A DNA stretch of 64,000 nt from Azolla caroliniana. Taxonomy: Eukaryota; Plantae; Polypodiophyta. The notes under the pieces are model-generated. The model saw only the letters and a program-made list of their open reading frames with translations, was not told the DNA's origin and did not search any database. The stretch spans positions 26,412,001-26,476,000 of the forward strand of contig JBHGNT010000002.1 in assembly GCA_043228905.1 (NCBI GenBank). The letters are read 5' to 3'. Positions 7,211 to 60,500 of this stretch are shown here, in pieces. Position 1 is the stretch's first letter; the number at the start of each line of letters is the position of its first letter. Position numbers and translations under genes: made by a program.

Positions 7211-9567
7211 TTTATGTTCCCTTTATGTTCCTCCTCAAATGTTGCTATAATTTTGTCCCTTCGTCACAAATAGTTTTCTTTGGATTACTTTACCACCTTC
7301 TCTTGTTTGTCATAAGTTTACCATTGTACAAAAGTTGTGATCAAATATCAGATACCATGTGCCCTCATCACAAAATGGTAGGTATGTTTTGCATGCAATT
7401 GTAAAGCCATCTCATGCACTAAGATCATCATTGTGGACTCTTATGAACCCTAAAGCATTTTACTTTGTTCAAATACAAAGAAGTTGAAATCGCCCATAAT
7501 TGCTATCATGATTTGTCTCATAGGCTGATTTTAGCCTCTAATAGATGTTGAACATATTTCTTTCTATAATACTATTGGTTTATTCAAGCAAGGATGCCCA
7601 CTTTTACTATCTATTTGGTCCATGCATTGGTGAATTAGCACATATGGTTATCAAGCAAAAACCATTGAAGAAATATCATCTTTAATGTACTCATCATGCT
7701 TTCGTTGTATGTGAGATGATGTGTTGTTTTTTGCATATACTCTAGGAACATTTTACATACATGCTAAATTGAGTGAAAATTGTTCTAAAACGAAGATTAT
7801 GCTTGTGAAGAGCCAAAGGATAAACTATGCATTATATACAAGTATGAACTACGCGAAACTTTGGAAAGCCTTAAATACTTTGGCCTTAAAATTCCTTCAC
7901 ATCATAGATGGAATGAATGTGCTATCTACCACTTAGAAACAAGAAAGAAAGCATTTTGTGCATATGAGAACACAAGCAATGGTGGAGAAATTAATGGTTT
8001 GGTCCTTAATAAACACCTTTTCCACACATTGGTGCCATTGGTGCTTCCCTATAGGGCGGTCACGTCCCTATGTTCATTTGGAATGAGTTTGAAAATGTCC
8101 AAAAGCATTTATTACAAAGTTTCTCCAAGTTGAGAAACAAATTTCACACATCCTACTTCTTGAGGTGATATCACTTCCCATTGAGATCATTGTTATGTCA
8201 AGGGTTGTTGAATGCATTGCTTGAGATTAAAAAAAGTTCCTTTCATCAACTTCCTACAATTGCATGGGAAACAAACAAATGATCTAAACAATGCATAAAG
8301 GCAAAATTTTGTGTTTCAAATTTATGGAGTTTATGAAAAATGGGTTGAAAGTTGAGATGCAACACACTTGCTTCATGATATATCAATAGATTCTTGTGTG
8401 AATGAGGCATTTTTGCGACGCCAATGTATCGCGATATGGGAAAATGCAGAGGCTCACATTTCACAGATTATGCTACATTGTTGTACCTAACTACAAAACC
8501 ATATTGTTCATTGAATGGGGATTTTGCAGACATCAATACACATTAGAGTTGATCCCATCATCAACTATATGAGCTATTGGTTCCATACAACTTAGTTCAC
8601 ATGCACTTCATTGTGAGATGAAACATAGGAGCAAGTGGTGACAATAGTTGACTATTGTAAAGAATCGGATATGATTCTTGTGAAGTGGAAGAGAAGAGAG
8701 GAGAGGAGAAACACAAGATATATAAGAGACAATATAAAGTACTCGAGAAGAAGGAGGAGATGTATATTAACAAGTAGAATATGAGATACAAAATAGCATT
8801 ACAAGGAGTCACAACCGACTTAATATGGAGTAGGAGGAGGGTGCTTTATATAGAATCAGATCCTCTCTCTTCATTTACTCGTTAAAACGTTCACTCTCTC
8901 ACTAGAGCCTTGAGGAATGTGAAGTCTTACGGTCATGGGGAATGTGGAACCATTAGTTATGTGTCATAGAATATGAATCTATGACACATAGTTTAATGTG
9001 TAGAGAGTGGTGGTGTGACTCTCGACCTTTGAGTAATCATATATTCTCAAAAGTTGTGTTCACACGTTGCTCTATGTTGAGCTTGATTCTCAACACGCCC
9101 CCTCAAGCTCAACTCGGGTCAGCTCCTTTCGGTTTATGTCCGCTTTGGCTGGTATCCGGTTCAGACGATCTCAATTGTCCGTTTCGGCTCGTACCCAGTT
9201 CAATCGGTATCTGATTCTCGCTTGTACTCCCCCTCAAGCTTGGCAAGTCAGGGATTATCAATCCAAGGTCTGACATGAATTGCCGAAGCTTGTCGGCTCC
9301 TAAGGCTTTTGTGAATATGTCGCCCGTTTGATGATTTGTGTTTATGTGTAGAACGTCGACATCTCCGGCCTGAACACGCTCTCGAATAAAGTGATAGTGC
9401 ACTTTGATATGCTTTGTGCGTGTGTGGAACACTGGGTTCCGAGCCAAATAAATACTGCTCATGTTGTCACAGTAAAGGGGAGTCGGATCCTTGATGGGAA
9501 CGCCCAGATCCTTCAAAATCTTCTTAAGCCATACGACTTCACATGCAGCTACGGCTGCGCCTGTCAC

Positions 9568-9643
9568 AAAATGTGAATATCAAGGTTTGAACTTGTGACC
9601 TTCAAACAATGGTCTTACACTTCAACCATTGCACCAACTCATT
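9568..9643 (-). promoter_or_regulatory. tRNA-gene-like Pol III cassette, antisense within U3 of the element B LTR (copy also at about 14075-14135)
   Basis: Minus strand: A box TGGTGCAATGG (9636-9626), variable-loop AGGTC (9601-9597), T-arm CAAG-TTCAAAC-CTTG (9595-9581), then TTTT (9571-9568). Confidence 0.65.
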
Positions 9644-9960
9644 TTCATATTATTATTATTCAAGAACTGTAGAGCACTAGACACATTAAATGACCGCCAA
9701 ATGGCATGCACCTTGTACGCCAAGTGGCGCACAACATGTATGCCAAATGGCGATCATGCACATTCTGATGTATAGTATATAAGTCGAAGATCTGTTTAGT
9801 GTTGAACCATTCCGGTTCAACACCAGTCTTCAACAACCTTGTAATCTCGGTTTCCGGTAATAGAAATTCTTGTATTTTTGTCTTGTAAACGTCTTCTCGT
9901 TTGTTATTATCTTCTTTTCTTCCAAATCGACCTTGTTTTCGAAGCTTGGGTCACGACAGT

Positions 9961-9972
9961 TTGAACCGGAAT
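9961..9972 (+). promoter_or_regulatory. Self-priming primer-binding site of element B
   Basis: TTGAACCGGAAT is the exact reverse complement of ATTCCGGTTCAA at 9809-9820, which lies about 33 nt downstream of TATATAA (9776). No TGG tRNA-type PBS is present. Confidence 0.8.
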
Positions 9973-10085
9973 CCCACATTATTTTTTCTCGAGTATTTAG
10001 TGAAGTTTTTCCGTCACAATGGAGACCGTCAGTAAACAAGAGTATATGCGTATTCTCTCAGAACTTGACCTCCTAACAACAAAAT

Positions 10086-13000
10086 TTGTTGCATTGGAAC
10101 GAGAATCATAAACTTCTTGGCGACTCGCAACAAGTGAGCGTTGAAAAGGCACAACAACATGAGGAACTCTTGAAACATGTCCAACAACTTGAAGCTATTG
10201 TGTTATCTCTTCGACAACAAGCTTCAAACTCTCAAAGTTTGTTGAAAGAACCCAAAATTAGTTTACCAACAAAATTTGATGGTACAAGGTCTCAATTCCG
10301 AGGATTCTTAAATCAGGTACGCCTTATAATTCATATGCATCCCAACCGATATCCAACTAACGCAACTCGAGTGGGGTTAGTTGGAACATTATTGACAAGA
10401 ACCACACTAGCATGGTTTGCACCATTGCTAGAGAAGAAATCCCCAATACTAGAAAACTTTGATACCTTTATCAACGAATTCCAAGCTAGTTTTGGTGATA
10501 CTGATAGTGTAAGAACAACAATAAACAAGATATGTAGGTTGTGCCAAGGAGATCGGCCAGCCTCATCTTACGTAGCTGATTTTTGTCTTCTTACTTGTGA
10601 TATCCCTTGGGATGAAGCAGCGATGATGGACTTGTTTCAACATAGTTTGCGTAATGATGTTAAAGACTTGCTCTTAACATTTCATGATGAACCCAAATCA
10701 CTGACAGAAGCTATTAGCCGTGCAGTTTGATGTGACAATCGTTTGTTCGAAAGACGTTCTGAGCACCAACAAACGTTGACACGCCTTAGATCTGAGCAAA
10801 CATATGCCTCAGCATTAGCCTCACCACCTTTAGGACCAGTGCAAGTTCCTAATCCTAATTCTTTTAATGGACCTACTCCAATGGAGATTGATGCAACACG
10901 TCGTCGAGGTCCTTTGTCCGAAGCCGAGAAACAACGACGTCGAGCAAATTGACTTTGCCTATATTGTGGTGGTCCAGGACATATAGCAATACATTGTCCA
11001 CATCGACCAAAGAGACAATTAAATCAAGTAAGTGCTATTGAGAATTTTGATTCATGTTCTCCAGTCAAAGCCAATAAACCAAGAACTCTTGTCAACAACT
11101 CTCAATCCAATAGTTTTGATGTTCTAAGCCAACTAGATGAGATGTTAAACGAGTAAGTCCAGCCAAAATCGGAGCCATTTGGTTGGACCAACCAAAGCAT
11201 ATAGAACTTGTTCCGAGCTTAGGTTCCATTTCATCGAACTGAGTCAGTGAAGTTTTCACAGCGCAAGTTCAACTCAACACATCAAGATGTCATCAAGTTC
11301 TTGCATCTGCGCTCTTGGATTCAGGAGCCAACTCATGTTTCATGGATCGGGATTTTGCCACAACACAAGAAATTCTACTCTATAAGCTTCCTCGTCCAAC
11401 ATCAGTAGCAGTAATTGATGGACGTTCTATTGCATCAAGAGATATTACTGAAGAATCAGAGCCTATTCGTGTAGTTCTTGGTAATTTAGCTACTGTAATA
11501 TCTTTTAATATCATAAGCAGTCCCAAACATCCAATTGTTCTTGGGTTGCCGTGGTTTGAACTTCATAATCCAAAGATTGATTGGAAGAAGCGGGAAATCA
11601 TAGACTCACGAGACAACACTTTAAGGCTCATCACCACATCAACCTCAAAGCTAACACCAAGACATATATCAACTATCTCTCTTAAAAGATTACATAAAGA
11701 AGCTACAATAGAAGATATGTTTGTGTTTGCAGTGGTCATAACCCCATTCTCAAACCCACAAGATTCAGAGGTCCATTTGCCATCAAAGTATCAAGAATTT
11801 TCCGATGTGTTTGATAAGGTAAAGGCCACAACACTTCATGATCATTGCCCATATGATTGTCCCATTGATTTGCATGCTGAGAAGGAACCACCATGGGGAC
11901 CAATTTATAACCTTTCGCCGTCAGAATTGAAAGTTCTTCGAGAATATATTGATGAGAATCTTGCAAATGGCTTTATTCGACATTCCCGATCTCTTGCTGG
12001 CGCTCCTTTTTTCTGTTAAGAAGAAAGATGGCTCTTTACGTTTGGTCGTAGACTATCGAGGCTTGAACAAGGTTATGATTCGAAATCGATATGCTCTACC
12101 ATTGATTCCAAATCTCTTGGAACGTCTCAATGGGACCAAATACTTCACAAGGCTAGACTTACGAGGAGCTTACAACCTTGTTCGTATTCGACCTGGTGAT
12201 GAATGGAAAACTGCTTTTCGCACATGATATGGTCACTTTGAGTACACAGTAATGCCATTCGGGCTTACAAATGCTCTAGCAGTTTTCCAACATATGGCAA
12301 ATGATATCTTTCGAGATTTCCTCGATATCTTCACGATAATTTACTTGGATGACATACTAATCTACTCAAAGACACAAGAGGAGCATAATAATCATGTTCG
12401 ACAAGTTCTACAACGATTACAGGAATTTGGTCTTTATGCCAAACTAGAGAAGTGTTACTTTGACTGCAATCAAGTCGAGTTTCTAGGGTATATGGTCTCT
12501 CCAGAAGGTATTTTTATGGATCCAAAGAAAGTACAAACATTTCTAGATTGGAAGACACCAGGCTCAGTTCATGATCTGCAATGTTTCTTGGGATTTGCAA
12601 ATTTCTACCGCAAGCTCATCAAGAGTTACTCAAAAGTTGTTTTGCCCCTCACGGAACTAACACAGAAGAACCAACCATTTGTATGGACATCAAGTGGAGC
12701 TGATGCATTTGATAGCTTGAAGCAAGCATTTACATCTACTCCCATTTTGGTCCACGTTGACCTTAAAAAGCCGTTTATCATAGAAGCGGATGCATCTGAT
12801 TTTGCACTAGGAAGTATTCTATCGCAAGTAGCGGATGATGAGAAATTACATCCAGTTGCATTTCATTCAAGAAAGTTTGAACTTGTAGAAATCAATTATG
12901 AAATCCATTGCCTCGACATCGGCCATATGGTTTGTTGCACCCATTGCCCATTCCAGATGGTCCGTGGAAATCCATTTCTATCGATTTCATCACAGATCTC

Positions 13001-14076
13001 CCATCTTCCCAAGGCTATGATGCAATTCTTACAGTGGTGGATCGCTTTACGAAAATGGCACATTTTCTTCCATGTAGAAAAACTTTTACTAGTCAAGAAT
13101 TGACAAGTCTTGTTATGCGAGAAGTTTTCAAGCACCATGGCCTTCCAAATGAAATCATTAGTGATCGTGGACCACAATTTATTGCAACTTACTTGAGAGC
13201 CTTGGAATTTCTCGTAAACTATCTTCAAGCTACCATCCTCAAACCGATGGGCAAACGGAATGCACAAATCAAACATTAGAACAATATCTCCATTGCTTTA
13301 TCAACTATCAACAAGATGATTGGATGGATTTCTTACATATTGCAGAATTTGCTTACAATAATTCAATCCATTCTTCTACGGGATTCACTCCGTTCTTTGC
13401 AAACACAGGATATGATCCTCGATGGATGATGTTCGAATGTCCAAAAGTCTCAAAAAATCCCACGGTCAAAGATCGTCTAGAAAAACTCAAAGAAATTCAA
13501 ACCAATCTTTCTCACAATTTGCTTCATGCTCAAGCCAAGTACAAGAAGGTGGCGGATAAACATCGCTTAGATTCTTCACTTGAAGACCCTAAGTTTAAAG
13601 TTGGTGATCGTGTCTGGTTATTGTATCGTAATGTGAAAACTACTCGACCAAGTGCCAAATTGGATTTCCAACGTCTAGGTCCATTTGTAATCTCTCATCA
13701 AGTCAACGATGTTGCATTTCATCTGGACCTACCTTCACATATGCGTCTTCATCCAGTATTTCATGTTTCATTATTAGAACCATGGACATCAAGTTCTATT
13801 CCAAATCAGGTTATCCCACCACCACCTCCGGTTCAACTTGCTGAAGGACCTGAATATGAAGTAGAAGCTATTTTGGACTCTAAGGTCATCCGCAATAAGT
13901 TATATTATCTAGTAGATTGGCTGGGATACACGCCCGCGGATCATACATGGGAACCTGCAACGAACGTCACTAATGCCTTTGAACTTATACAAGAGTTTCA
14001 TCTTCGTTATCCCCATAAACCAAAACCTAGTTCATGCATTGCGACTCATGGAACTCGTCGTCAAAGGAGGAGATAA
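10086..14076 (+). pseudogene. gag-pol of element B, with nonsense codons, frameshifts and an internal deletion near 12908
   Basis: ORF fragments 10086-10730, 10743-10952, 11315-12019, 11949-12227, 12252-13103, 12908-13279 and 13324-14076 carry successive Gag/PR/RT/RH/IN/chromodomain motifs. Confidence 0.9.
11144..11216 (+). promoter_or_regulatory. Putative -1 ribosomal frameshift signal between gag and pol of B
   Basis: In-frame heptamer G TTA AAC just before the gag TAA, a 6-nt spacer, and an 11-bp stem 11157-11167/11178-11188. pol is in the -1 frame. Confidence 0.7.
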
Positions 14077-15660
14077 GGTTTGAACTTGTGACCTTCAAAC
14101 AATGGTCTTACACTTCAACAATTGCACCAACTCATTTTCATTAATAAATACATTTTCATATTATTATTATTCAAGAACTGTAGAGCACTAGACACATTAA
14201 ATGACCGCCAAATGGCATGCACCCTGTACGCCAAGTGGCGCACAACATGTATGCCAAATGGCGATCATGCACATTCTGATGTATAGTATATAAGTCGAGG
14301 ATCTGCTTAGTGTTGAACCATTCCGGTTCAACACCAGTCTTCAACAACCTTGTAATCTCGGTTTTCGGTAATAGAAATTCTTGTATTTTTGTCTTGTAAA
14401 CGTCTTCTCGTTTGTTATTATCTTCTTTTCTAAATCGACCTTGTCTTCGAAGCTTGGGTCACGACAACGCCCCTGTATTTCACCTCCGTACTCAAAAGAG
14501 CGACGGTAGGTTGCTTCTTGCTACTCCCGAAATCGCTCCGCTGCCGAGGGAGAAGACAAATCCGGAGGTCGATCGTCGATCAGCTTTGTAGCCAGCCCAA
14601 TCCGCGTCCATGTATCCTTCGAGTCGTATTGGTGTGACTGATTTGTAGAGAATGTTGTAATCCATTGTTCTGCTCACATATCGTAATACTTGCTTAGCGC
14701 AATCGAAATGGATATCTCGGGAGTTTGCATGAATTGGCTAAGGAGTCCGACCAGATAGCTAAGGTCAGGTCGTGTGATCGTGAGATAGATGAGACTCCCG
14801 ATCAGTTGTCGATATTGAGTCGGATCGCACTCGTTTGTGCCGGAGTCGGCATCTAGTTTGAGGTTTCTATCGAGAGGCGTAGCGATCGATTTGCACTCCA
14901 TCATCCCAAACTTGTATAACAAGTTGAGAATGTAGTGCCGTTGAGAGATCATAATGCCGACCGGATTCCGAATCACCTCGATGCCTAGGAAGTAGTGTAG
15001 CTCCTTCATGTCCGTCATCTCGAATTTGTTGGAGAGGAGGGACTTCACCTTGTTGATGTCAACTAAATGCTCACCTCCAATAACGAGATCTTCCACGTAT
15101 AGAATGATAACAATTGGGCTTTTAGACTCGTTTCATACATAGAGGGAGTTGTCGGATTTCGACATTCGAAAGCCGATTTGATGAAGATATTGTGTAATCT
15201 TTGAATGCCAAGCACGTGGTGCTTGCTTGAGGCCGTAGAGAGGGTTCTTGAGTTGACACACAACTTTCAGATGGAGGTTGGATTCGAAGTCGGGTGGTTG
15301 AACCATGTACACCTCCTCTTCCAATTCACCTTGAAGAAAGACGTTCTTTACGTCCATTTGGTGGAGGTGTCACCCTTTCACCATTGCAAGTGCGATCACG
15401 GTCCGCATAGTCGTCATCTTTGCCACCGGGGCAAAGGTCTCTTCGTAGTCAACTCCATGTGTTTGCGCGTATCCTTTCGCTATGAGTCGAGCTTTGTAGC
15501 AATTGACGGAGCCATCAACATTATACTTCACCTTGTAGATCCATCAACAACCTATCGCCTCTCTTGTGCGGTGAGTGGGGAACGACATCCCATGTGTCGT
15601 TCTTGGGTAGTGCATGCATCTCCTCGTTCATTGCTTTGATCCATCGCGGGTCCATTGCGG

Positions 15661-16335: not shown

Positions 16336-18112
16336 TCAGCTTTGGAAAAGGTTTCCGGCTCCCGTATTGTTGCGACCTTCATCATAAAGGCGTAATGGTA
16401 TGCCATATACTCATCGTAACCGAAGCGGCTTACAGGGTTCTTTTCACGGGTGGATCGGTGTAGCTTCTTGTTTGCGGATTCTAAGGCTTTCTTCACTCCA
16501 TTTGTTTGGATGTCAAGGCCTTTGAACTCACTATCGAGGGAGTGAGTCGATTCGTTGCCATCGAAATGAGCATCTTCATACTTCGGCATTTTGGCATTCC
16601 CTTTGTCCAACTTCGGACTTGCTCGAGATGTGCTTTGATCGCTCAAAGGCTCTTGTGGTCCGCTTAGTCGGGTCATGATCGGACTTTCTTCGAACATGCG
16701 CGTAAGCCGATCTTCATCCTCTATCTCTTGTTCGGCGTATTTCGGGTCGAGCAGAATTGGAGTCGAAGTTGTCTCTGGTGCGTACCAGGATGCGAACTCA
16801 TCAAAAACGACGTCTCGACTTACTCGAGATTTTCGAGTTGAGGGGTTGTAGCACTTGTACCCCGTTTGCTCCAGTGGGTATCCTACGAGGATACATTTCT
16901 CCGACTTCGGGTCAAGCTTTTGACGCTTCTCATCGGGGATGTGCACGTACGCAATGGAGCCGTATATCCGAACATGCAATAGGTCTGGCTTCTTTCCGAA
17001 GAACTTCTCGTGCGGAGTAAGTTCGTGCACACCCGATGTCGTACACCGATTCATGAGATAGATGGGCGTGTTAGTTGTTTCGGCCCAATACGATTTCGGC
17101 ATGTGCTTTTCGTTAAGCATAGCTCGTGCCACTTCGAGGATGTGCCGATTCTTGCGTTCGGCCACTCCGTTTTGTTGTGGTGTATGTCGACACGAAAACT
17201 CTTGCCGTATTCCTTCTTTTCGTAGAAACACCGAAAATTCGTCGGAGAAGTACTCCTTGCCTCCATCTAACCGAAGACATCGTACATGTCGGCTTGTGGC
17301 TTTCTCGACTTCATTCTTAAATTTTTGGAAGTGTCCGAACACTTCGCTCTTTTGTCGCATTGGGTAGATCCAAGTGTGTGCCTAGAGAAGTCGTCGATGA
17401 AGGTTACGTAGTATCAGAATCCGCCAAATGTCACTGTTTCAGCCGGACCCCATACATCGGAATGAATTACATTGAGTACGGCTTTGCTCAAGTTCCGCTC
17501 CTTCGGAAATGGGTGTCGATGGTGCTTGCCGAATTGGCAAGCGGCACACACGCCTTCAATCTCTTTCACCGTGAATGTCGGGAGCTCGATGACGACTCCT
17601 TTCGATTGCATTGCCTTGAGCTTTTGGAGGTTGATGTTAAGAGTCTATTACTAATCAATAGACCAAATCAAGTAAAAAGGAAGAAAATAGGTTGGATAGA
17701 AGAACCCGTTCCACCCGACCACCCCCGAGCTATGATCTAGACATAGCCAACCTACCACCGACGTCCCATACCGCCGGATATTAGGATGACTAATACCTTG
17801 GAAGAGATAAACACGATCGTTGAGACGAAAGCCTAGCCCGCACCACCGGTGTCTACGACAGCAGCCTTCCGACGTGATTCCTATGAGGGTAGCTAAGCCT
17901 CATATTTATACCTTTTCCTAGGCCCCTTGAATAGATGTGCCTTTCTAAAAGGCTCTCTATTCATTGGTTGTCTAAATCATGATAGTGCATGCACATATCA
18001 TTCATTCTATCCAATCATTAGTCCCCTTTTTAATAATAGTGAACATACCCTTCACTAATGTAAATATTAGTGACCTACCCTCACCAACGTTATGTGTACA
18101 TAACATACTCCC

Positions 18113-21100
18113 CTACTTCAAAAGATTGCACTCTTGCAATATAAAGTGAGGAAATTGTGCCTTAAGCGAATGCTCGTGTTCCCATGTGGCATCATCAATA
18201 GGTTTATCCATCCATTTGATCTTGAATAGCCGAATCTCTTTAGAACGTAAACGTTTAGTACGAGAATCAAGAATTCGTTCAGGAACATGAGGTTTGTAAG
18301 AAAAATCCTCTAATGTTACAAGATCTTGGATTGTGATGGTGTTATCACCAGAGCCTAAAAATGGTTTTAGACGACTGACGTGAAAAACAGGATGAATACC
18401 AACGTTACGAGGTAAGGCAAGGTGATAAGCAGATGACCCAACTCGCTTAAGGATTTCAAATGGGCCACAATATCGTGGGGCTAACTTAGCGCACTTGCCC
18501 GTAGATAATGACGTAGAATCAGTCGGGACACGCAAAAAAACTTTTTGACCAATAGTAAATGCACGAGGACGTCTATCCTGATCAGCATAAAATCAAGCAC
18601 GATCTTGAGTTGTCTTGACATTTTCTTTGGCAATATGCAACATTTGGTTCATGTCTTGCAAAAAATTGCGTGTACTGTCTAATGTATCACGATGAATCGT
18701 GACATCAACTGGGGCACGTGGCTGAAAACCATACATCAACATAAAAGGACTATATCCAGTGGATGTATGTTTAGAGCTATTATAGGCAAATTCGAAGATA
18801 GGAAGGTATTGCTCCCACTTAGAAGGGGTTTTTGCTACATAAGCTCGAAGCATGTCCTCAATAATTTGATTAACTCGTTCAGTTTGTCCATCAGACTGAG
18901 GATGATCTGCGGAACTCATGCTCAACGTAGTTTCTAGTTTCTTAAATACCTGAGTCCAAAAGTCACTAGTAAACTTGGAATCTCGATCACTAACAATATC
19001 CATCGGTAATCCATAAAAACGAAATAACTCATCAACAAATTGATAAGCCAACTGTTGAGCGGTTACCGTGGTTTTTGTAGGAATAAATCTAGCTAATTTT
19101 GTTAGCCTGTCAACGACAACCCATATGGCATCATGACCCCTCTGTGTACGAGGTAAACTAACAATAAAATCCATCGAGATACTTTCCCATTTATTGTTGG
19201 GAATATCTAAGGGATGTAAAAGACCAGCAGCTTTAAGTCGTTCCGACTTATTAATCTGACATTGTAAGCATTGAGTTACGTATTTATGCACGTCAGAGCG
19301 CATCTTAGGCCAGAAAAAAGTACACGAGATGAGAACGAGTGTGCGTTGTATTCCAGGATGACCAGCAGATGGTGCATCATGACATTCATGAAAAATTTTC
19401 TGTTTAACATTTGGTAAATCTGGAACACAGACCTTTCCACTACGGTAGAGCAAACCGTTTGTAATGTGAAAGGTCGCCTTCGAGGGTAGGGTGCTAGTAT
19501 CGGCATCTAAACCAGATTCGGCTTTCGTCCAGTATTTTGAGAAATAACTGTCATCAAGGTATTTCCCTCGAAGGTGATCTAAAAGATCAGATTTTATTTC
19601 CGTGAAGCTAAGCATGTTAACTTCTTTAATGCGACTAAGAGCATCAGCAACGGTGTTCATAGAACCCTTGCGATATCGTATGGAAAAATCAAAATCTTGC
19701 ATAAGGTCAGCCCAACGGCCTTTACGACCAACAAGATCGGGCTGGTCACAAAAATACTTTAATGATTGATGGTCTGTTGTAACCACAAATTTATTTCCAT
19801 AGAGATAGTGCCTCCATGTTTTAAGTGCGTGTATCACCGCAAACAACTCTTTCTCTTGAACCGAATACCGAGATTGAGCAGCATCAAGCTTCTTACTTTC
19901 AAAAGCAATAGGGTGACCACCTTGATAAAGAACGGCACCAATAGCATAATCACTAGCATCGGTTTCAATTGAGAAAGGCTTAGAAGGGTCTGGTAATAGA
20001 AGAGTGGGAGCCTGACACACATGCTCCTTGAGTGTCTCAAATGATTTGTCAAGTTGTTCATTCCATGAAATTGGTTTGACAGACTTACGTGGATGACCTT
20101 TTAAAAGGTCAGTTAATGGCGTAGTCAATTTGGAATAGTTACGAATTGATTTTCGTAAAAATCCAACAAACCCTAAGAATGATCTAAGTTCACGAATATT
20201 ACGAGGAATGGGCCAAAGTTTAACCTTTTCAATACGAGAAGGTTCAATTTCAACGCCCTTTTCTGTAATTAAATGACCTAGGTACACAATAGATTTTTGG
20301 AAGAAGTCACATTTTGAATGTTTTGCATAGAAAGAGTTGTCACGCAACTTTCGCAAAACAAATCGAACATGTTGAACATGATCTTGCAAGGTACGTCTAT
20401 ATATCAAAATATCATCCAAGAAGACGACAACAAAATCACCGAGTTGATCTCGGAAAACATCATTCATCGCTTGTTGGAATGTGGCTGGAGCATTAGTCAA
20501 CCCAAACGGCATGACTAAAAACTCATAATGGCCATAGCGCGTACGAAAAGCGGTTTTAGGAATATCATCCTCGGCGATGCGAATCTGATGATAACCAGTT
20601 CGTAAGTCAATTTTCGTAAAATATCGAGCCCCGTGCAAACGATCAATCAAATCATCGGCACGAGGTAATGGATATGCATTCTTAATTGTCATTTTATTCA
20701 AACGGCGATAATTGATACACATTCGCCACGAACCTTCCTTCTTCTTGACTAATAGAACTGGCGTACCCCAAGGTGATTTAGTATACCTAATGTGGCCCAT
20801 ACTCAAGTATTCCTTAAGTTGTTTAGCGATCTCATCCTCTTCTAATCGACTAAGTCGGTAAGGTGGAATGCTCACAGGAGCAGCCCCAGGGATGAGTTCA
20901 ATTTGATGGTCCACATTACGTTTAGGTGGTAAAGTAAGCGGTAATTCAGTAGGAAACACATCTTGAAAATCCTCTAAAATAGAGTCGAGTAATCATTGCT
21001 CAAAATGTGGTAATTGTGTGGCGTCAATATTAAAATAATAAAATTGAACCGCAGGATCAATTACACACGAATAAATTAATGAACTAGAATACTCACTTAA

Positions 21101-22516
21101 AGATTTAGAAGACACAAGTGAATGAGAAGGAAGTTTGGAACATTGAATAAAATGTTTACAATTATTAAGTTCAAATGTGATTGAGTGATTAACCCAATCA
21201 ATGGACAAAGAAGGGTTTTTATTAAAAAACCAAGGATATCCTAAAATGACATCTGCGGATTGTAATTTCATAACATGAAAGTCAAGCTTCTCCAAATAAG
21301 TATCTATTTGAATTGGCAGTTGACCAACAATGCCACTGATGTATTGAACGTTTCCATTTGCCATGTGAACTTGATAGATATGATCACTTGCGTTTATGTG
21401 GAGCTCCATTTGCTGCACAAAGTGATCATTAAGAAAATTGTGAGAACTATCGGAATCAAACAAGAAATGTGCTTGTGTTCCATTGATATATCCGACTGCT
21501 CGGAGTAAATCATTAGGTCCAAGTAAATGTGAAGGAAAAGTGCATTGACATAAACTTAAGTGATTGGTATGAACTTCAACAATATCAAAAGACTCACCTG
21601 TGTGACTCGTAGATTTGTCTTGAGGAGGGGTGTTCATTGACTTCCTCTCAAGACGACGACAGGTATCCTTTGTGTGGCCCCGCTTCTTGCAATATGCACA
21701 GAAGAGGTTCGGTTTCTTTGAGTCGCAGTCAAGAGTGTCACTGGATTGCTTACGTTTCCCAATGAACTTGACATTCGGAGTTTTGGCGAACTCAGGTTTA
21801 TTGTGGTCTTTCTTGGAAGTCCTATAGTATCGCAGCACAATGTTGACGGCTTCCTCGAAAGTTGTGGGGTCCTTGTCATGGACAATCCAATGATAATCCC
21901 CATTGGGAATACCATTCAAAAAACAAGCGACAAACCATTTCTCACCCGTAAGTCCCGATTTTTGGATCTGGGTCCGAGCGTGATGCACATAATCCTCGAG
22001 AGAGGTAAATGGCTTACTAGACAATGTGAGCAAGTGTTGCGCTTGTTCGGTTTGAGAAGGTGGCTGCAAGAATTGTTTCTTAAAAACATCAACGAAACCT
22101 TCCCAAGTTGTGGGTAAGTTTTTTGCGGTCCTTAGGCCACGCCACCAAGCAGCAGCTCGGCCACCTAACTCACGACCGACATAACCAATTTTTATTGCAT
22201 CGGGCTTGGGATGAAGCTCAAAGTGAGACTCCCAACGACCAAGCCAAGTGCTAATGGCCTCCTCGGTTCTTTCTTTCTTATCTCCCTTGAAAGGCGTGAC
22301 TACGAAGGAAGGTTCACCTTCTTTCTTGGACTCAATAGTTAATTCTTGGAATTTCTTTTCCAATGCCATATTGGCCTGTCTCATTTCGTCCAATTGATTC
22401 AAGGTAGTAGTGAGCAATTGCTCAATAGTGATCTCAGCTTGTGTGCGAGATGCGGATTGGGGTTGGGAGGTCTCATTTGGAGAGATCGTTCCAACTGCGT
22501 TCAAAACTTGTTCCAT
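18113..22516 (-). pseudogene. Single-frame Gag-PR-RT-RH-IN-chromodomain polyprotein of C, with two in-frame TGA codons
   Basis: ORFs 20993-22516, 18593-20959 and 18113-18535 are all in one frame. Motifs: CAYCKKRGH knuckle, FLDD, HHCC/DDE integrase, GPF motif, and a group II chromodomain (PERILD...IKW...ATWE). Confidence 0.93.
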
Positions 22517-23504
22517 GATGCACGCTGTGGGTATGCAATAAAATAAGGAGGTTCAGAAAATACACAAGCAAAATGAATGCTTGAAATTTTGATTGAAAGA
22601 ACTTTATCCAAGAAAGTATCTCATGTCTTTACCCCTCTAGACATATGAGATGTGATTCGAGATCCGATAACTATGGTAACACTATGGTGTTTTAAAAACC
22701 ATGGGGGAAAACATAGCTAAGATGTATTTCTCGGATCTCTATCTTGAGTAATCATGGCGGCTTCCCGAGGCTCAACCATGGTTCTTACATCAATGAAATT
22801 TCCTAGATAGCCTTATATTAATGCCAACCCATCATGTATTATATGGTCGAGAAAGTGTATTACGTGAAAAAACAAGTGCACTCACAAGTAATATTCTAGT
22901 CTTGCGAGCAATAAGCAAACGTGATGATAAAATGATAAAATAAGGCACTACTCATAAGAGTTAAGTAGTGACGAAAACAAGGGTAAAAAAAAAGAACCCA
23001 TGTGTTACCTACGAAAAAAACAATGTCACAAATAAATGGGAAGTGCAAGGTATGCACTTATACATCCCAATATGATTGTTATAACTTGCACAATTGTGAC
23101 ATAAGCCACAAATTGATACAAGTGATGACGGTGTTGTGCGCAAAGATGTAATACTCAAATCCATGAGTAAAACATCAATAAGGGAACTCATATGGTTTTA
23201 CTCGTTTTCTAAGGCTTGATGATAAGAGTTAAACCTAGATGACCCGTTGAAAAAAAAAATCGTTCAACAAGCCACTCCATACAAAAAAAATAGTCTACAC
23301 GTAAAGGTTACATTAAAAATAAACGATGTAAATACTTTATACATGAAAAGGAAGTGGAAAAAGGAGAGTTAATTGTGGGCCGGTAAATAATAATTACTAG
23401 AAAATCATATAAGTGAAACAATACTTATGAAATTAAAATTTAATTAGAATAATCAACAATTAGGTGTATGGAATCAAACATGCCCTAAGATACGAAACCC
23501 TAGG

Positions 23505-23836
23505 GTAGTTGACATGCACCTCCTCAAGACCACCACATATCCCTAGAATCGGCCAAGTAATGGCTAATTAAAGAGGAAAGTGGCATAGGTAAGTGACATA
23601 TACCTCGTCAAGGCCATATCATCCCTTAGAATCGGCCAATTGATGGCTAATTAAAAAGGAAAGTGGCATATGTAAGCTACATATACCTTGTCAAGGCCAC
23701 AACATCCCATAGAATCGGCCAATTGATGGCTTAATAGAGAGTAGAGTGGCATAGGTAGGCAACATACACCTCGTCAAGGCCACATCATCCCTTAGAATCG
23801 GCCAAGTGATGGCTCAATAGAGGGGAAGAGTGGTAT
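23505..23836. repeat. About 83-bp tandem repeat x4 in the 5' leader of C
   Basis: Unit containing TAGAATCGGCCAA...GATGGCT...AGTGGCATA repeated four times. Confidence 0.9.
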
Positions 23837-25173
23837 ACTCAACATCATATGCAAAACGGCCATGAGATAAGCGTGTGCGATTAGAGCAAACACGCTCGAC
23901 CCAATGCACAAGAATAATTATTATCGTAAGAGTTCAAGAGAGGAGAGAGTGGGATATATATCGCAATATGCAAAAGGCCATGAGTTGAGCGTGTGCGATT
24001 AGTGCAAACACGCTCGGCCCGATGCATAATAATAAGTAAAATCGTAGCGTAGTAGGAGGTAGAAAGAAAGAGAATAAAACGTAATACCAATTTGATTCGA
24101 CCATAAAGAACGCATAATAGAAAAAGAGAAGAGATCAAAAAAGAAGAATACCGGGTTTAGAGTGTTGTTTTGATCCTGAGAAGAGCATGACGAGCCTTGT
24201 TAGATCCCCCTCGCTCACACGCAAAAACATCAAAACAACAAAAAAATTGTTAGTAAAAGCTCTGATACCACTGTTAAGAGTCTATTACTAATCAATAGAC
24301 CAAATCAAGTAAAAAGGAAGAAAATAGATTGGATAGAAGAACCCGTTCCACCCGACCACCCCCGAGCTATGATCTAGACATAGCCAACCTACCACCGACG
24401 TCCCATACCGCCGGATATTAGGATGACTAATACCTTGGAAGAGATAAACACGATCGTTGAGACGAAAGCCTAGCCCGCACCACCGGTGTCTACGACAGCA
24501 GCCTTCCGACGTGATTCTTATGAGGGTAGCTAAGCCTCATATTTATACCTTTTCCTAGGCCCCTTGAATAGATGTGCCTTTCTAAAAGGCTCTCTATTCA
24601 TTGGTTGTCTAAATCATGATAGTGCATGCACATATCATTCATTCTATCCAATCATTAGTCCCCTTTTTAATAATAGTGAACATACCCTTCACTAATGTAA
24701 ATATTAGTGACCTACCCTCACCAATGTTATGTGTACATAACAGTTGATATGGCCAATCCGCTTGTGCCATAAATCTATGTCGGAATCGGCTTTCATGCCC
24801 TTTGCGAACATGGCCGATTTCATCTCGTGTGAGTCGAGAATGAACATTCGGCCCTCTCTTCATCCGTGTGCGATGAGTCGGCCCTCTTTTTCGATGAAGC
24901 AACCGCCTTGATTAAATCGTACTTGCCTTCCTTGCTCTACAATTTGGCCGACGGAGACCAAATTCTTCGTGATAGTTGGTACGTGCAAAACATTTTTAAT
25001 ATAAGTTTGCTCACCTTCTTCTTCGAATGGAACATTGCTGATGCGCCGAATCGGGTGCGTAGTATCGTCTTCGGTTTCGACATAGTCGGGTCGGGTCGGC
25101 TCTCGAAGTTCTCGAAACCATTCTTGATGCGATGTCATATGGTTCGAGGCACCGAAATCGACGAACCATACAT

Positions 25174-28714: not shown

Positions 28715-28918
28715 TTTATCGTAATTAGCTTACCCTAGTGGTAAGTCGTTATATACTACTATCACTACATCTTGGGCTCAAAACCCAAATTTCTCTCCTC
28801 TCTATTACATACTCCATAGATATCACTTATTTCACTAAATGCCACTATGGAATGTAGTGGTTGAACCCATGACCACTTGGTCTCCATTGGGCAACCTTAC
28901 CAACTGAGCTACATCCAT
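28715..28918. repeat. Tandem unit, copy 1, with two convergent tRNA-like modules (SINE-like)
   Basis: Plus strand: TACCCTAGTGG (28731) and GGGCTCAAAACCC (28774). Minus strand: TAGCTCAGTTGG (28911-28900) and GGTTCAACC (about 28867-28859). Homologous to 38196-38399. Confidence 0.7.
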
Positions 28919-55734: not shown

Positions 55735-55807
55735 TTGGCTTCACCTAAGCTTGAACCCAAGACCTTGTAATACATAATCAAGAACCCAACCATTAAGATA
55801 GCCTATA
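55735..55807 (-). promoter_or_regulatory. tRNA-gene-like cassette, antisense in U3 of the H LTR
   Basis: Minus strand: TATCTTAATGG (55800-55790), AGGTC (55765-55761), TTGGG-TTCAAGC-TTAGG. Spacing is the same as in B. Confidence 0.55.
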
Positions 55808-56952
55808 ATCATACAAAATAATAAAAACTACTTTTTGTAATATATTGATTATTGTAAAACTATGGAACATTCTAGAACATTCTAGAATATCCTAGAACAT
55901 CTTAGATTATTCTAGGTGTAGAACTTTCTAGAACATCATAGAAATCTCTATGTTATTTTATAGGAACCTAGAAATATAGACATACAATTATTCTCAAACC
56001 AATTTGAATCAGCACCAATCTTTAGCTCTCATTACATATCTTGTATCCATTCTTTTTCTTTTTCTATCTTAATACACCCATTCTTCTCTTATCATTTCGT
56101 CCCTTTTCTTCTCGTGTTCTCTTATATCCTTCTTCCAACTTTTATTTTTCATTTTGATAGTTTGATTCAAAATTTCTCTCTCCTTTATCCTCTATAAACA
56201 TCACGAAACCATGGCCGCCATCAACTCAGAAGAATGTCTCACTCTTCTTGCAAAAATGGAGAATCTTAAAACCAAGTTCACATCTCTTGAATTAGAGAAT
56301 CAACCGGTATGGAGAAGCAACAAGTTACTATGGACAAGGTTACTATGGAAAAGCAACAACAACAAGAGGAGTTTACACAATAGGTTCAACAATTAGAGTT
56401 GACAATCATAGTTTTATAACAACAAAGGGTCGAAGGTCAAGGAATTATCGAGGCCAAAATCAACCTCCCAACTAAATTTGATGGTTCGAGGGTGCATTTT
56501 CAAGGTTTCTTGAATAAAGTACGGTTGGTAATTCAAATGCACCCCACACATTATCTGACAGATGCATCACGAGTCGGGTTAGTGGGCACCTTATTGACTG
56601 ACGTAGCGTTGTCGTGGTTTGCTCCATTACTAGAGACAAATTCTTCTCTACTACATAATTTTGAGGAATTTATCAAAGAATTTAAGGCTTGCTTCAGAGA
56701 TATAGATCGGGCAAGAACAACAATCAACAAGATTCGCACACTACGTCAAGGTGATCAGCCAACATCGACATATGCAACCAATTCTGTCTCATCGCAAGCA
56801 ATATTCCTTGGGATGAACAATCCCTAATGGAGCAATTTCGTTTCAACCTTCGTAGTGATGTGAAAGACTTCTTACTTTCCCTGAGGATCTATAATCCCTT
56901 ATAGAAGCTATTAGTCGAGCAATACGATGTGATAATTGTCTTTTTGAGCGTC

Positions 56953-57535
56953 GATGTGAGCGACAACAACAAATAACAAGATCAAGATTCACACCAACTT
57001 ATGCATCAGTAACAACGCAATCATCTCCAAGGCAAACATATAGCCCTGCTCTAACTCCAAGGCAAACACGTAGTCTAGTTCCAATCGATAGGCCTACACC
57101 CATGGAGATCGATATGACCCAACGACGAGGACCATTGTCAAAAGAGAAGCAACGACGTTGAGCAAACTGTTTGTGCTTATATTGTGTAGGTCCAGGACAT
57201 ATAGCCATTCATTGCTCCCGTAGGCCGAGACGTTAGGTAAATTAAGATGTGAGCAACAACAAATAACAAGATCAAGATTCACACCAACTTATGCATCAGT
57301 AACGGCGCAATCATCTCCAAGGCAAACATATAACCCTGCTCCAACTCCAAGGCAAACACGAAGTCTAGTCCCAATGGATAGGCCTACACCCATGGAGATC
57401 AATATGACACGACGATGAGGACCGTTGTCGGAAGAAGAGAAGCAACGATATCAAGCAAACCGTTTGTGCTTATACTGTGTAGGTCCAGGACATATAACCA
57501 TTCATTGCTCCCGTAGGCCGAAACGTCAAGTAAAT
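56953..57535 (+). repeat. About 290-bp tandem duplication in the gag of H, including the zinc knuckle
   Basis: 56953-57245 and 57246-57535 align. Confidence 0.9.
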
Positions 57536-60500
57536 CAAATTCACTATGACAATAAAAATGAGTCCAACATTTTAGAAGCAGTTAGTGATTCTAATATTAT
57601 GAATAATCCACCCTTGTCCAATAAGTTTGAGGTCCTAAGACAATTAGAAGAAGAGTCAAACAAATCAATTCGGCCAAAATAGGAGCCATTTGGTTAGACA
57701 ACTCTAGATTTGTACAACGTAGTGTGGGTTCCATTTCTTCCAAGCATGTTAGTAGAGTCTTCTCAGCCCAACTACAAGTTAGGCCACCAAGTTGTCAACT
57801 TCAGGTCTAAGCCCTCGTAGATACCAATGCCAATTCTTGTTTCATGGATAAAGATTTTGCCCAAAAACACCAAATATCTTTGCATACCCTTCATTGCCCA
57901 GTTTTCGTAGTTGTGATTGATGGACGTCCCATAGCTTTCGGGAAGATATTCAAAGAGTCTGAGCCAATGCATATACGCTTAGGTGATTTAGGATGTGTAG
58001 TTTCCTTTAACATAATCCGTAGCCCCGAGCATCCAATTGTCCTTGGTTTGTCATGGTTCTGTCATGAACTGGTTCTGACAGGTTCGAGCTACATAACCCA
58101 ATAATTGATTGGAGGAGGCGAGAAATTTGGTGCCCTTCAGTAGAAAACATCATTGCCAAGGATTGAACCCAAGACTATTCCCTTAAAGAATATAGTTTTA
58201 CCAGTGCACCATCTCCGTTTCATTGAATCTCAACCATCACATTGCAACAATTGTCCCAAGTGGAAGGAAATTTTCTTATTTACAATATCAATGACACCTT
58301 CTAGTGCCACTCAAGGGAATTCAAGCATCCAAATTCCCAAAAAATATCAAGAATATGTTGATCTTTTTAACAAAGTCAAAGCTAGTGTACTTCCAAAGCA
58401 TCGGTCATACGAATATCCGATTGACCTCCGACCAGGAACAAAGCCACCATGGGGTTCGATCTACAATCTATCACCAACTGAGCTTGAGGTTCTTCGAGAA
58501 TACATCGAGGTGAATCTTGCATATAGGTTTATCCGACATTCAAAGTCTCTGGTCGGTCCTATATTTTTTATGAAGAAAAAGGATAACTCGCTTCGTTTGG
58601 TCGTGGACTATCAAGGATTAAATAAAGTCACCATAAAAAATAGGCATGCTCACCCTTTAATCTCTAGTCTTTTAAAGCACATTGGTGGGGCAAAGCATTT
58701 TACAAAAATCGATTTAAGGGGTGTATATAATCTTGTTCGAATTCGACCGGGAGATGAGTGGAAAACTGCATTTCGCACCCGGTATGGTCATTTCGAGTAT
58801 ACAATCATGCCTTTCGGACTCACAAATGCACCCACAGTTTTCCAACATATGGCAAATGATATTTTCCGGGATTTTCTAGACATCTTTCTCATCTTCTATT
58901 CAAATGATCTGTTGATTTACTCTAAAACATAGGAGCATGATATACATGTCCGGAAAGTACTTGAACGCTTAAGAAAGTATGGTTTGTATGCCAAACTTGA
59001 GAAGTACAGTTTTGACATCAAACCAGTTGAATTATTGGGTTATACTATTTCATCCAAGGGTATCTTCATGAATACAACAAAAGTCAAAACAATATTGGAA
59101 TAGCAACCCCCACATTCTGTTCGAGACGTCCAATGTTTCCTCGGATTTGCTAACTTCTATCGCAAATTCATATGGAATTATTTAAAGATCATGTTGCCTC
59201 TCACCCAACTCACCAAGAAAAACCAAGCGTTTGTTTGGACTATTGAAGCAAACACAACCTTTACTCAGCTCAAAGAGGCATTCACATCAGCTCCTATCTT
59301 AGCACATATTGATTCCGAAAAGTCATTTACCATTGTGGCGGATACGCCAGACTTTGCATTGGGGAGTATCCCATCACAACCATGCAAGGACCGGCAGTCC
59401 CATCCAATCGCGTTTCACTCTAGAAAATTTGGGAGTAAATAGGGGTGAATTAGGGTGTAGAATGTTAAAGGAGAGAGGACGGGGAGACAAATGACAAGGT
59501 TGATGGGATTGGAAGAATTCTGAAGTGGATCAAATCGATAATTGACGATATTGTTGTGAGGACGAAGAACAAATATAAGGGGGGAATAGAATGTCCAAGA
59601 GATGAGATGTGGTGGTGAGGAGTTGGGCGGTGTCACCATATAGCCAATTGTGTATCATTTGTTGCAAGCACAAAACTCGTGACATCCAATCATGAGAAGG
59701 GAGGGTGAGAGTGTGGGTGGGGTTACTTGGGAAATATGATATTTTTCTTTTAAGAATGTGTGTGTGTTTGGAAAAGTAGTTAAAGAGGAAATGAAAGAAA
59801 GATGTGAATCCTAGGCTTGGTCTTGACCCTAAGATTGGTTAAAGGATAAAAAGGTGGTGTTGGCTCCTCGATGAAGGAATAATGCGTGACATCACGTACT
59901 AGCGCCCATCATCCTTTGAAGGAGGCTACCACTTCACAAATGTAAGTCTTACTCTCATATTGCATGTATTACGATGGAGTTATCGACACTGTCAATAGAA
60001 CCCTTGTTAAGGTGAGCATCTCTCCTCGTTTACAAGCTATAGTTGTCTTTAATTTTCATTTGCTTTTCATCTACCATCCACATCATGTGAAATCAAGAGC
60101 CTTGTGAAAACTAACATTATCATCTTCTCCTCCCTTTGCACATGTGACACCCCAACAATGTGTTCTTCAAAAATGCAATAGTGAGGATGAGTTGGATGAG
60201 TGGGAAGAAACAAATGAAGGTGTGAATGCCAAGACTGGAGATATGAAGGTGGTTTTTGATAAGGTCCTATGTGATTCACAAAATTCCTAACTCAATGGGC
60301 TTTACATTGTGTAGTTTGGGGAAGGCATATTAGTTGAAGATGAGAAAGTCACGTTGGTTCTAACCATCGTGGAAATTCAACTATGCCCATCGGTGTGAGA
60401 TCATATAGAATGAATGTGAGGTCGTTGCCCAATAGGGGACATGAAAAACCATTAATATAAATGCACATAATTATATAGGATAGAGTATTAAGGACATGTG

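Follow-up and report, generated by a model that had tools for sequence, protein, structure and literature searches.

An antisense, tRNA-gene-like promoter signature in the LTRs of self-priming, Tcn1-like chromoviruses

Element B and the module in its LTRs

The 64,000-nt stretch of Azolla caroliniana DNA analysed here (hereafter the window) is a nest of LTR retrotransposons, and no host genes were found among the 20 ORFs scanned in it. The module of interest belongs to one of these elements, B (Table 1), which sits inside a minus-strand Copia coding region and is bordered by a 5-bp target duplication with four of five bases identical between the two flanks. Its chromodomain matches the Pfam Chromo profile, and the aromatic cage residues (Y, W and Y) are all present in the alignment. 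Given this aromatic-cage chromodomain, the self-priming and the 5-bp target duplication, we regard B as a Tcn1-like self-priming chromovirus with a group I chromodomain, an assignment made by these features. The terminal 20-22 nt of the 3′ LTR are gone directly after the polypurine tract (PPT), at a 2-nt microhomology (14060-14082), so that this copy is left without one integrase end; the loss presumably postdates the insertion.

Table 1. Features of element B, and the module of element C, with positions counted from the first nucleotide of the window
Feature	Position	Strand	Remarks
Element B	9562-14466	+	4.9 kb, LTR-bounded
5′ LTR of B	9562..9958	+	TG...CA, 397 nt
T4 run	9568..9571	-	12 nt past C61, the terminator place of a tRNA gene
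B box	9584..9592	-	G53-C61
AGGTC	9597..9601	-	tRNA positions 44-48; conserved across families
Decayed anticodon arm	9602..9619	-	spacer of fixed length
A box	9624..9636	-	T8 at 9636; conserved part A14-R15-T16-G18-G19-T20
AT-rich tract	9637..9680	-	upstream of A box; candidate TFIIIB site
Pol II TATA box of B	9776..9782	+	putative, from position and conservation
Self-primer of B	9809..9820	+	predicted RNA 5′ end, 33 nt past TATA
PBS of B	9961..9972	+	12 nt complementary to self-primer, not to a tRNA 3′ end
Broken gag-pol of B	10021..14076	+	Gag, RT, RNase H, integrase C-terminus with SH3 and chromodomain
Polypurine tract of B	14063..14074	+	
Damaged module, B 3′ LTR	14073..14135	-	G18 changed, no terminator; 13.7 bits
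3′ LTR of B	14075..14466	+	lacks first 20-22 nt; 18-nt insertion; 6 substitutions relative to 5′ LTR
Module of element C	55737..55806	-	LTR start 55713; 25.1 bits with a profile excluding C

The initial annotation had described, on the minus strand of B, an A box, an AGGTC variable loop and a B box with 44 nt between T8 and G53, and all of these were located in the 5′ LTR, where the B box matches GTTCRANNC exactly. The paired T arm was borne out with four of five pairs forming, as was the T4 run 6 nt inside the LTR end (9571-9568; LTR start 9562). The further statement that this is not a functional tRNA is likewise supported, since the anticodon and acceptor stems are unpaired and the fold has a z-score of -0.36. 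The module had also been said to be present in both LTRs; the boxes can indeed be recognized in the 3′ LTR in damaged form, but there the TG end and the T4 run are missing and G18 has become T.

B had been described as an element that no longer uses a tRNA primer. Self-priming was confirmed, and among the positive loci listed the relatives have a 12-nt match between the PBS and R, 32-33 nt after the TATA box, with five PBS types, each changing together with the RNA start. No sign of the implied connection between module and priming was found, and a relative without the module (L057) is self-priming as well. The possibility that the U3 motif is a second self-primer site was rejected, given that the PBS and self-primer covary while the U3 motif stays unchanged. 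The predicted RNA start of B belongs to a short inverted repeat (9800-9821). The self-primer of B also holds a B-box-like string on the plus strand, which is gone in families with another primer sequence and is therefore probably a coincidence.

Another chromovirus lies on the minus strand at 17635-24742; it is tRNA-Met-primed, young (its LTRs are 99% identical) and has a long, tandemly repeated 5′ leader (23504-24046). The profile search of the window found no module in this element, and two 'tRNA-Leu' calls made by ARAGORN in its LTRs (at 17682 and 24319) were rejected, as they appeared only at a lowered threshold and had no profile match.

Detection and spread among relatives

Taken alone, the module of B is a modest match. 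A strict scan of the window for A plus B boxes gave two matches against 0.2 in shuffles. Neither ARAGORN nor Rfam recognised the module as a tRNA, whether in the window or in 60 and 20 loci; ARAGORN picked up the copy in B only at the 80% threshold, amid 38 calls, and the Rfam tRNA search suggested in the initial annotation returned no match for the window module at E<=10. That neither program sees the module may explain why it has been overlooked.

The module was clearer with a test profile built from 19 LTR clusters, from which B, C, L001 and L064 had been left out. This profile matched the 5′ module of B with 22.9 bits (E 3.7e-6), and its top three matches in the window were the modules of C (25.1 bits), of B (22.9 bits) and of the 3′ copy of B (13.7 bits); the best score in 20 shuffled windows was 9.8 bits, so that the module scores above shuffled sequence. 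All strong profile matches at LTR starts are on the minus strand. The full profile gave no match at E<=1 with L057, L066, L072 or L077-L098, and two real tRNA genes matched only weakly (9.3 and 9.6 bits, E 0.3-0.4). Two weak minus-strand matches in the window, at 58154-58210 and 28861-28901 (10.9 and 10.5 bits), barely exceed the shuffle maximum of 9.8 and are probably due to chance. Away from the anchored LTRs, matches were seen at L029:2946-2978, L059:1188-1219, L005:453-508, L010:838-908, L019:7301-7371 and L028:531-600, some of which are probably the other LTR or solo LTRs.

Element C is a second, diverged chromovirus of this kind in the window, with 66-68% nucleotide identity to B in gag-pol. 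The LTRs of B and C could not be aligned by BLAST, yet the module is placed alike in both. In element C, gag contains a tandem duplication of 293 nt (56953-57538), and the element stops abruptly within RNase H near 59430.

Relatives were sought with an alignment of the integrase end, which yielded 76 loci in metagenome assemblies, taken from the 80 best among 195 confirmed stretches, together with 22 more remote loci (L077-L098) in prokaryote genome bins; the chromovirus integrase-chromodomain genes in the latter contigs are most likely eukaryotic contamination. Viral contigs yielded no relatives. The sequencing runs listed as containing the stretch include leaf and plant metagenomes and no RNA run, a result that does not bear on expression. 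LTR starts of at least 100 nt could be taken from 63 metagenome loci and 11 distant ones, while the other 13 and 11 were left out. The 63 metagenome starts, which stem from the best 80 of the 195 stretches, and those of B and C made a set of 65 LTR starts, which fell into 35 clusters at 80% identity. A B-box core was present within the first 110 nt of 55 of the 65 starts, against 417 of 4138 background bins (10%), and in one of the 11 distant loci. The module is clear in 23 of the 35 clusters; the remaining 12, being decayed, interrupted or outside the clade, were set aside from the clear set. One of the loci, L008, carries two intact tRNA genes, Asn-GTT and Thr-AGT, tail to tail (552-627 and 831-906), about 150-200 nt from a 5′-truncated copy of the clade.

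In a quick tree of 47 integrase-chromodomain peptides, 22 clear and nine partial carriers lie on one side of a branch with an SH-aLRT value of 90, and all 12 non-carriers are outside it. The integrase-chromodomain proteins of the families with the module are as little as 56-58% identical. Clade and source are confounded in this comparison: 73 of the 76 metagenome loci, every carrier among them, come from one assembly series, and plant Tcn1 elements from outside the clade are missing from the sample. The boxes are carried by the B family and by the clade, and a one-off SINE insertion confined to one subfamily does not fit a module that is clear in 23 of 35 clusters and whose carriers form one branch of 31 rows. 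The proposal that a tRNA-gene-derived type 2 Pol III promoter signature is built into the U3 and passed on with the element is supported, and from these sequence comparisons we conclude that the module is a real, selected, clade-wide cis-element.

Conservation of the boxes and loss of the fold

To guard against circularity, anchoring was done on each half of the module in turn. With the B-box core as anchor, 18 of 29 clusters have the D-loop motif at a distance of 35 or 36 nt, and no other offset occurs more than once. With the D loop and GGTY as anchor, and the B box left out, 42 of the 65 loci could be anchored and 37 of these read GTTCRA. In the loci anchored without the B box, G57A was observed 17 times and C56T twice (7 versus 2 clusters); the B box tolerates G57A, and C56 is kept despite lying in a CpG.

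The conservation alignment was unselected and comprised 29 cluster representatives, broken copies included. The B box and AGGTC each had a mean top-base frequency of 0.83, and the A box reached 0.78 in its 3′ half, compared with 0.73 for the TATA box and 0.69 for the self-primer. The value was 0.53 in the anticodon arm, 0.39 in mid-U3 and 0.51 in the A box's 5′ half (poorly conserved across the clade, with a full match in B). The boxes are conserved as much as the TATA box, and the spacer is near the level of other U3 sequence; that the boxes exceed the flanking U3 agrees with what the initial annotation had led us to expect. Within the B family, three DNA runs list at least seven variable places, none of them at conserved box positions, a number too small for significance (rough estimate about 0.1), so that it is not counted as evidence here.

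The tRNA fold has fared differently. All four bases occur at position 59, positions 49-51 and 63-65 of the T stem change freely, as do both other stems, and position 62 is a T opposite G52 in 10 of 23 clusters. The proportion of cloverleaf cells that pair is 37% in the acceptor stem, 57% in the D stem, 44% in the anticodon stem and 68% in the T stem, where pairing is mostly in the two or three pairs adjoining the B box. RNAalifold predicted no pairs for the module alignment. Overall pairing was 49.9%, against 46.7% in shuffles (11/500; covariation score 7/500), a slight excess of a level that relatedness alone can give. With cloverleaf pairing low and RNAalifold finding no structure, a conserved RNA fold was rejected. 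In two loci (L021:1191-1263 and L055:959-1031) the spacer is now complementary to the B-box side, which makes a long hairpin with a z-score of -5.2 in L021 (-6.2 on the plus strand) and -3.2 in L055.

The terminator is not a feature of the whole clade either. Ten of 23 clusters have a T4 run inside the LTR, and five of 23, all in B's subclade, have it at the position expected of a tRNA gene (11-12 nt past C61); the first T4 follows the B box at a distance of 0 to 887 nt, if one was found at all in the sequence examined. The suggestion of a conserved, terminated small RNA with a tRNA-like fold is thus not supported, there being no shared fold and a T4 run inside the LTR in fewer than half of the clusters. 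On the other side of the module, the AT fraction at -35 to -20 averages 0.80 (21 clusters), while the upstream CAA of plant tRNA genes, which is reported to be weaker outside angiosperms, is present in one of 23 clusters. A CCA at tRNA positions 71-73 was seen in eight of 23 clusters; its interpretation as an inverted PBS was rejected, as it is 3 nt short of the mature tRNA end. Between the module and the TATA box, 10 of the 24 LTRs examined (window 55860-55960, L012, L013, L014, L019, L021, L043, L050, L055 and L058; B is without) carry arrays of TTCnnGAA units, which we take to be heat-shock-element-like motifs, and the families with such arrays may be heat-inducible.

In yeast, TFIIIC is reported to contact positions 44-47, upstream of the B box (PMC11724288), and the positions kept in our alignment match those read by TFIIIC, 44-47 included. 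The conserved boxes with the spacing of an intron-less tRNA gene, beside a diverged spacer and a lost cloverleaf, point to selection acting on DNA motifs for TFIIIC rather than on a tRNA fold. As the promoter bases are selected and the fold, the spacer and the terminator are not, a role at the DNA level would be expected.

Possible roles and known systems

As far as can be judged from sequence, the module is probably a selected TFIIIC-type promoter signature. The module lies between the LTR end and the TATA box and faces outward, and as the U3 is copied into both LTRs, the site would lie at the upstream edge of each new insertion and each solo LTR. Group I chromodomains are reported to target H3K9-methylated heterochromatin (MAGGY; PMC3350952), and tRNA genes are reported to insulate via TFIIIC in yeast (PMC4370569, PMC11724288), which together make a portable barrier our best guess. 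Protection of the element's chromatin is a serious candidate for what is selected, although it falls a little short of being probable. More tentatively, we propose that an outward-facing tRNA gene was captured once and kept as a portable TFIIIC/Pol III barrier, which would let elements aimed at heterochromatin stay transcribable and would scatter TFIIIC sites. The capture, of a whole tRNA gene or of a tRNA-derived SINE head, would have taken place once at the base of the clade. TFIIIC would bind the reversed A and B boxes at the edge of U3, and TFIIIB would thereby be positioned over the AT-rich tract immediately internal to the module, with low-level outward Pol III transcription of which the RNA would be incidental; the module could then shield the element's Pol II promoter from flanking heterochromatin, the most speculative step. 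The strict spacing of 35 or 36 nt is not required by the barrier model, since yeast TFIIIC reportedly tolerates distances of 31-93 bp between the A and B boxes (PMC4370569, PMC11724288). Support for barrier action by tRNA genes comes from yeast and animal work, no plant evidence having been found in the open-access literature.

The module could instead be a working Pol III gene whose selected product is an antisense RNA, tuning copy number or feeding small-RNA pathways. The A box, the B box and the AT-rich upstream tract are all kept, T4 runs stand 11-12 nt past C61 in five of 23 clusters (all in B's subclade), two clusters have long hairpins (L021, z -5.2; L055, z -3.2), and A/B-box-dependent Pol III miRNA genes are reported from simian foamy virus LTRs (PMC3993851). 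The RNA would be about 90 nt long in B's subclade; in other families it would run on from the 3′ LTR through the PPT and into the sequence that codes for the chromodomain. However, neither a fold nor a terminator is shared and the transcribed spacer is the most variable part, which makes this reading unlikely. We consider it improbable that the module acts in the genomic RNA (plus strand) by annealing to the T and D loops of a host tRNA, which would aid dimerisation, circularisation or packaging. Its place and orientation are as in Ty3, where U3 is reported to bind the primer tRNA at its T and D arms (PMC5371799); the strict tRNA-like spacing fits, tolerance of G57A but not of C56T suits annealing with G-U pairs, and HIV-1 U3-R is reported to carry a tRNA-Lys3-like sequence. 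Yet the elements are self-primed, their PBS covarying with the RNA 5′ end, so that no primer tRNA needs anchoring, and the U3 motif does not track the changes of the self-primer. Moreover, only loop-sized blocks are kept whereas T-stem positions 49-51 and 63-65 and the other stems vary, and the T62 opposite G52 (10 of 23 clusters) would mismatch a tRNA with a G52-C62 pair. The pattern of variation also speaks against an unbroken complementarity to any single host tRNA.

TFIIIC and TFIIIB at the U3 end might also serve integration, by tethering the cDNA end or by turning existing LTRs into landing pads for further copies, comparable to the targeting of Pol III starts by Ty3. The module is 16-63 nt from the integrase attachment end, but the B box lies at varying distances from the LTR end, the interrupted LTRs (L025, L034/L059, L056, L068, L070 and L071) break at differing places as judged by eye, and B itself landed in a Copia coding region, so we think this has little chance of being right. 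Least credible is the view that an old SINE or tRNA insertion has simply stayed in the LTR as a neutral relic. The single origin suits an insertion and traces beyond the boxes persist (the CCA at 71-73 in eight of 23 clusters), but this reading is largely refuted by boxes conserved like the TATA box, with a spacer near other U3, across families 56-58% identical in the integrase-chromodomain region, and by a C56 that is kept though in a CpG.

Group I chromodomain elements enter silent chromatin yet some stay active, and a conserved, point-mutable TFIIIC-type site would bear on how this is possible; RLG1 is reported to make up about half of the class I sequence in Physcomitrium, and some moss families are reported to be both transcribed and abundant. 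If bound, the module would put a Pol III element into an autonomous LTR retrotransposon of plants; among plant LTR elements, Cassandra, itself non-autonomous, is the only one cited as a Pol III user in the text available (PMC12786077). Within the open-access literature, the bound module would also be the first transposon-borne tDNA-like barrier found for plants. If the proposal is true, TFIIIC sites have been scattered in large numbers through the host genome.

Among described elements, the Tcn1 chromoviruses share with B the aromatic-cage chromodomain, self-priming and a 5-bp target duplication, and the accessible text of their descriptions makes no mention of a Pol III or tRNA-like LTR module (PMC6317226, PMC2864245, PMC3350952); in plants they have been reported only from mosses and club-mosses (PMC6317226). 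In the open-access literature we found neither Tcn1 nor any other autonomous plant LTR element described as having a tRNA-type promoter, and such LTRs may be noted in the supplements to Kojima (2024), in Repbase or in subscription papers. According to Kojima (2024), 'not a few' Repbase LTRs resemble tRNA, in an analysis of elements below 1 kb, and autonomous partners are argued to have to use Pol II promoters (PMC10886601). Helenus/TRIMp3 comes close in having a tRNA-derived LTR segment with conserved boxes (PMC10886601). However, Helenus is reported as non-coding, 311-1263 bp long and primed by a host tRNA, and it is proposed to be transcribed from its own Pol III promoter (PMC10886601), whereas the B clade has Gag-Pol, self-priming and a Pol II TATA box, and its module is antisense and faces outward. 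The Cassandra TRIM likewise shows that an internal Pol III promoter can be maintained for long in plant LTRs, but it is described as a 5S (type 1) promoter in sense orientation which drives the RNA of a non-autonomous element (PMC10886601, PMC12786077), in all of which the B clade is unlike it; a 2025 review singles out Cassandra from the plant LTR elements, which are otherwise transcribed by Pol II (PMC12786077).

Outside plants, the miRNA cassettes of foamy-virus LTRs are A/B-box Pol III units beside a Pol II promoter in an autonomous element, with a hairpin, a terminator and a demonstrated RNA according to the report (PMC3993851), whereas the B clade has the layout of a tRNA gene in which fold and terminator are not conserved. 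The bipartite PBS of Ty3 resembles the module in that U3 is complementary to tRNA T and D arms; it is described as tRNA-primed and as matching one tRNA (PMC5371799), unlike the B clade, which is self-primed and has box-sized motifs only. The tDNA and ETC insulators, with A and B boxes or B boxes, bound TFIIIC and proposed boundary roles, are reported from host loci in yeast and animals (PMC4370569, PMC11724288), while the site of the B clade would be carried and multiplied by a transposon. Compared with the known Pol III promoters captured by LTRs, the module is unusual in being antisense and in residing in protein-coding, self-primed elements.
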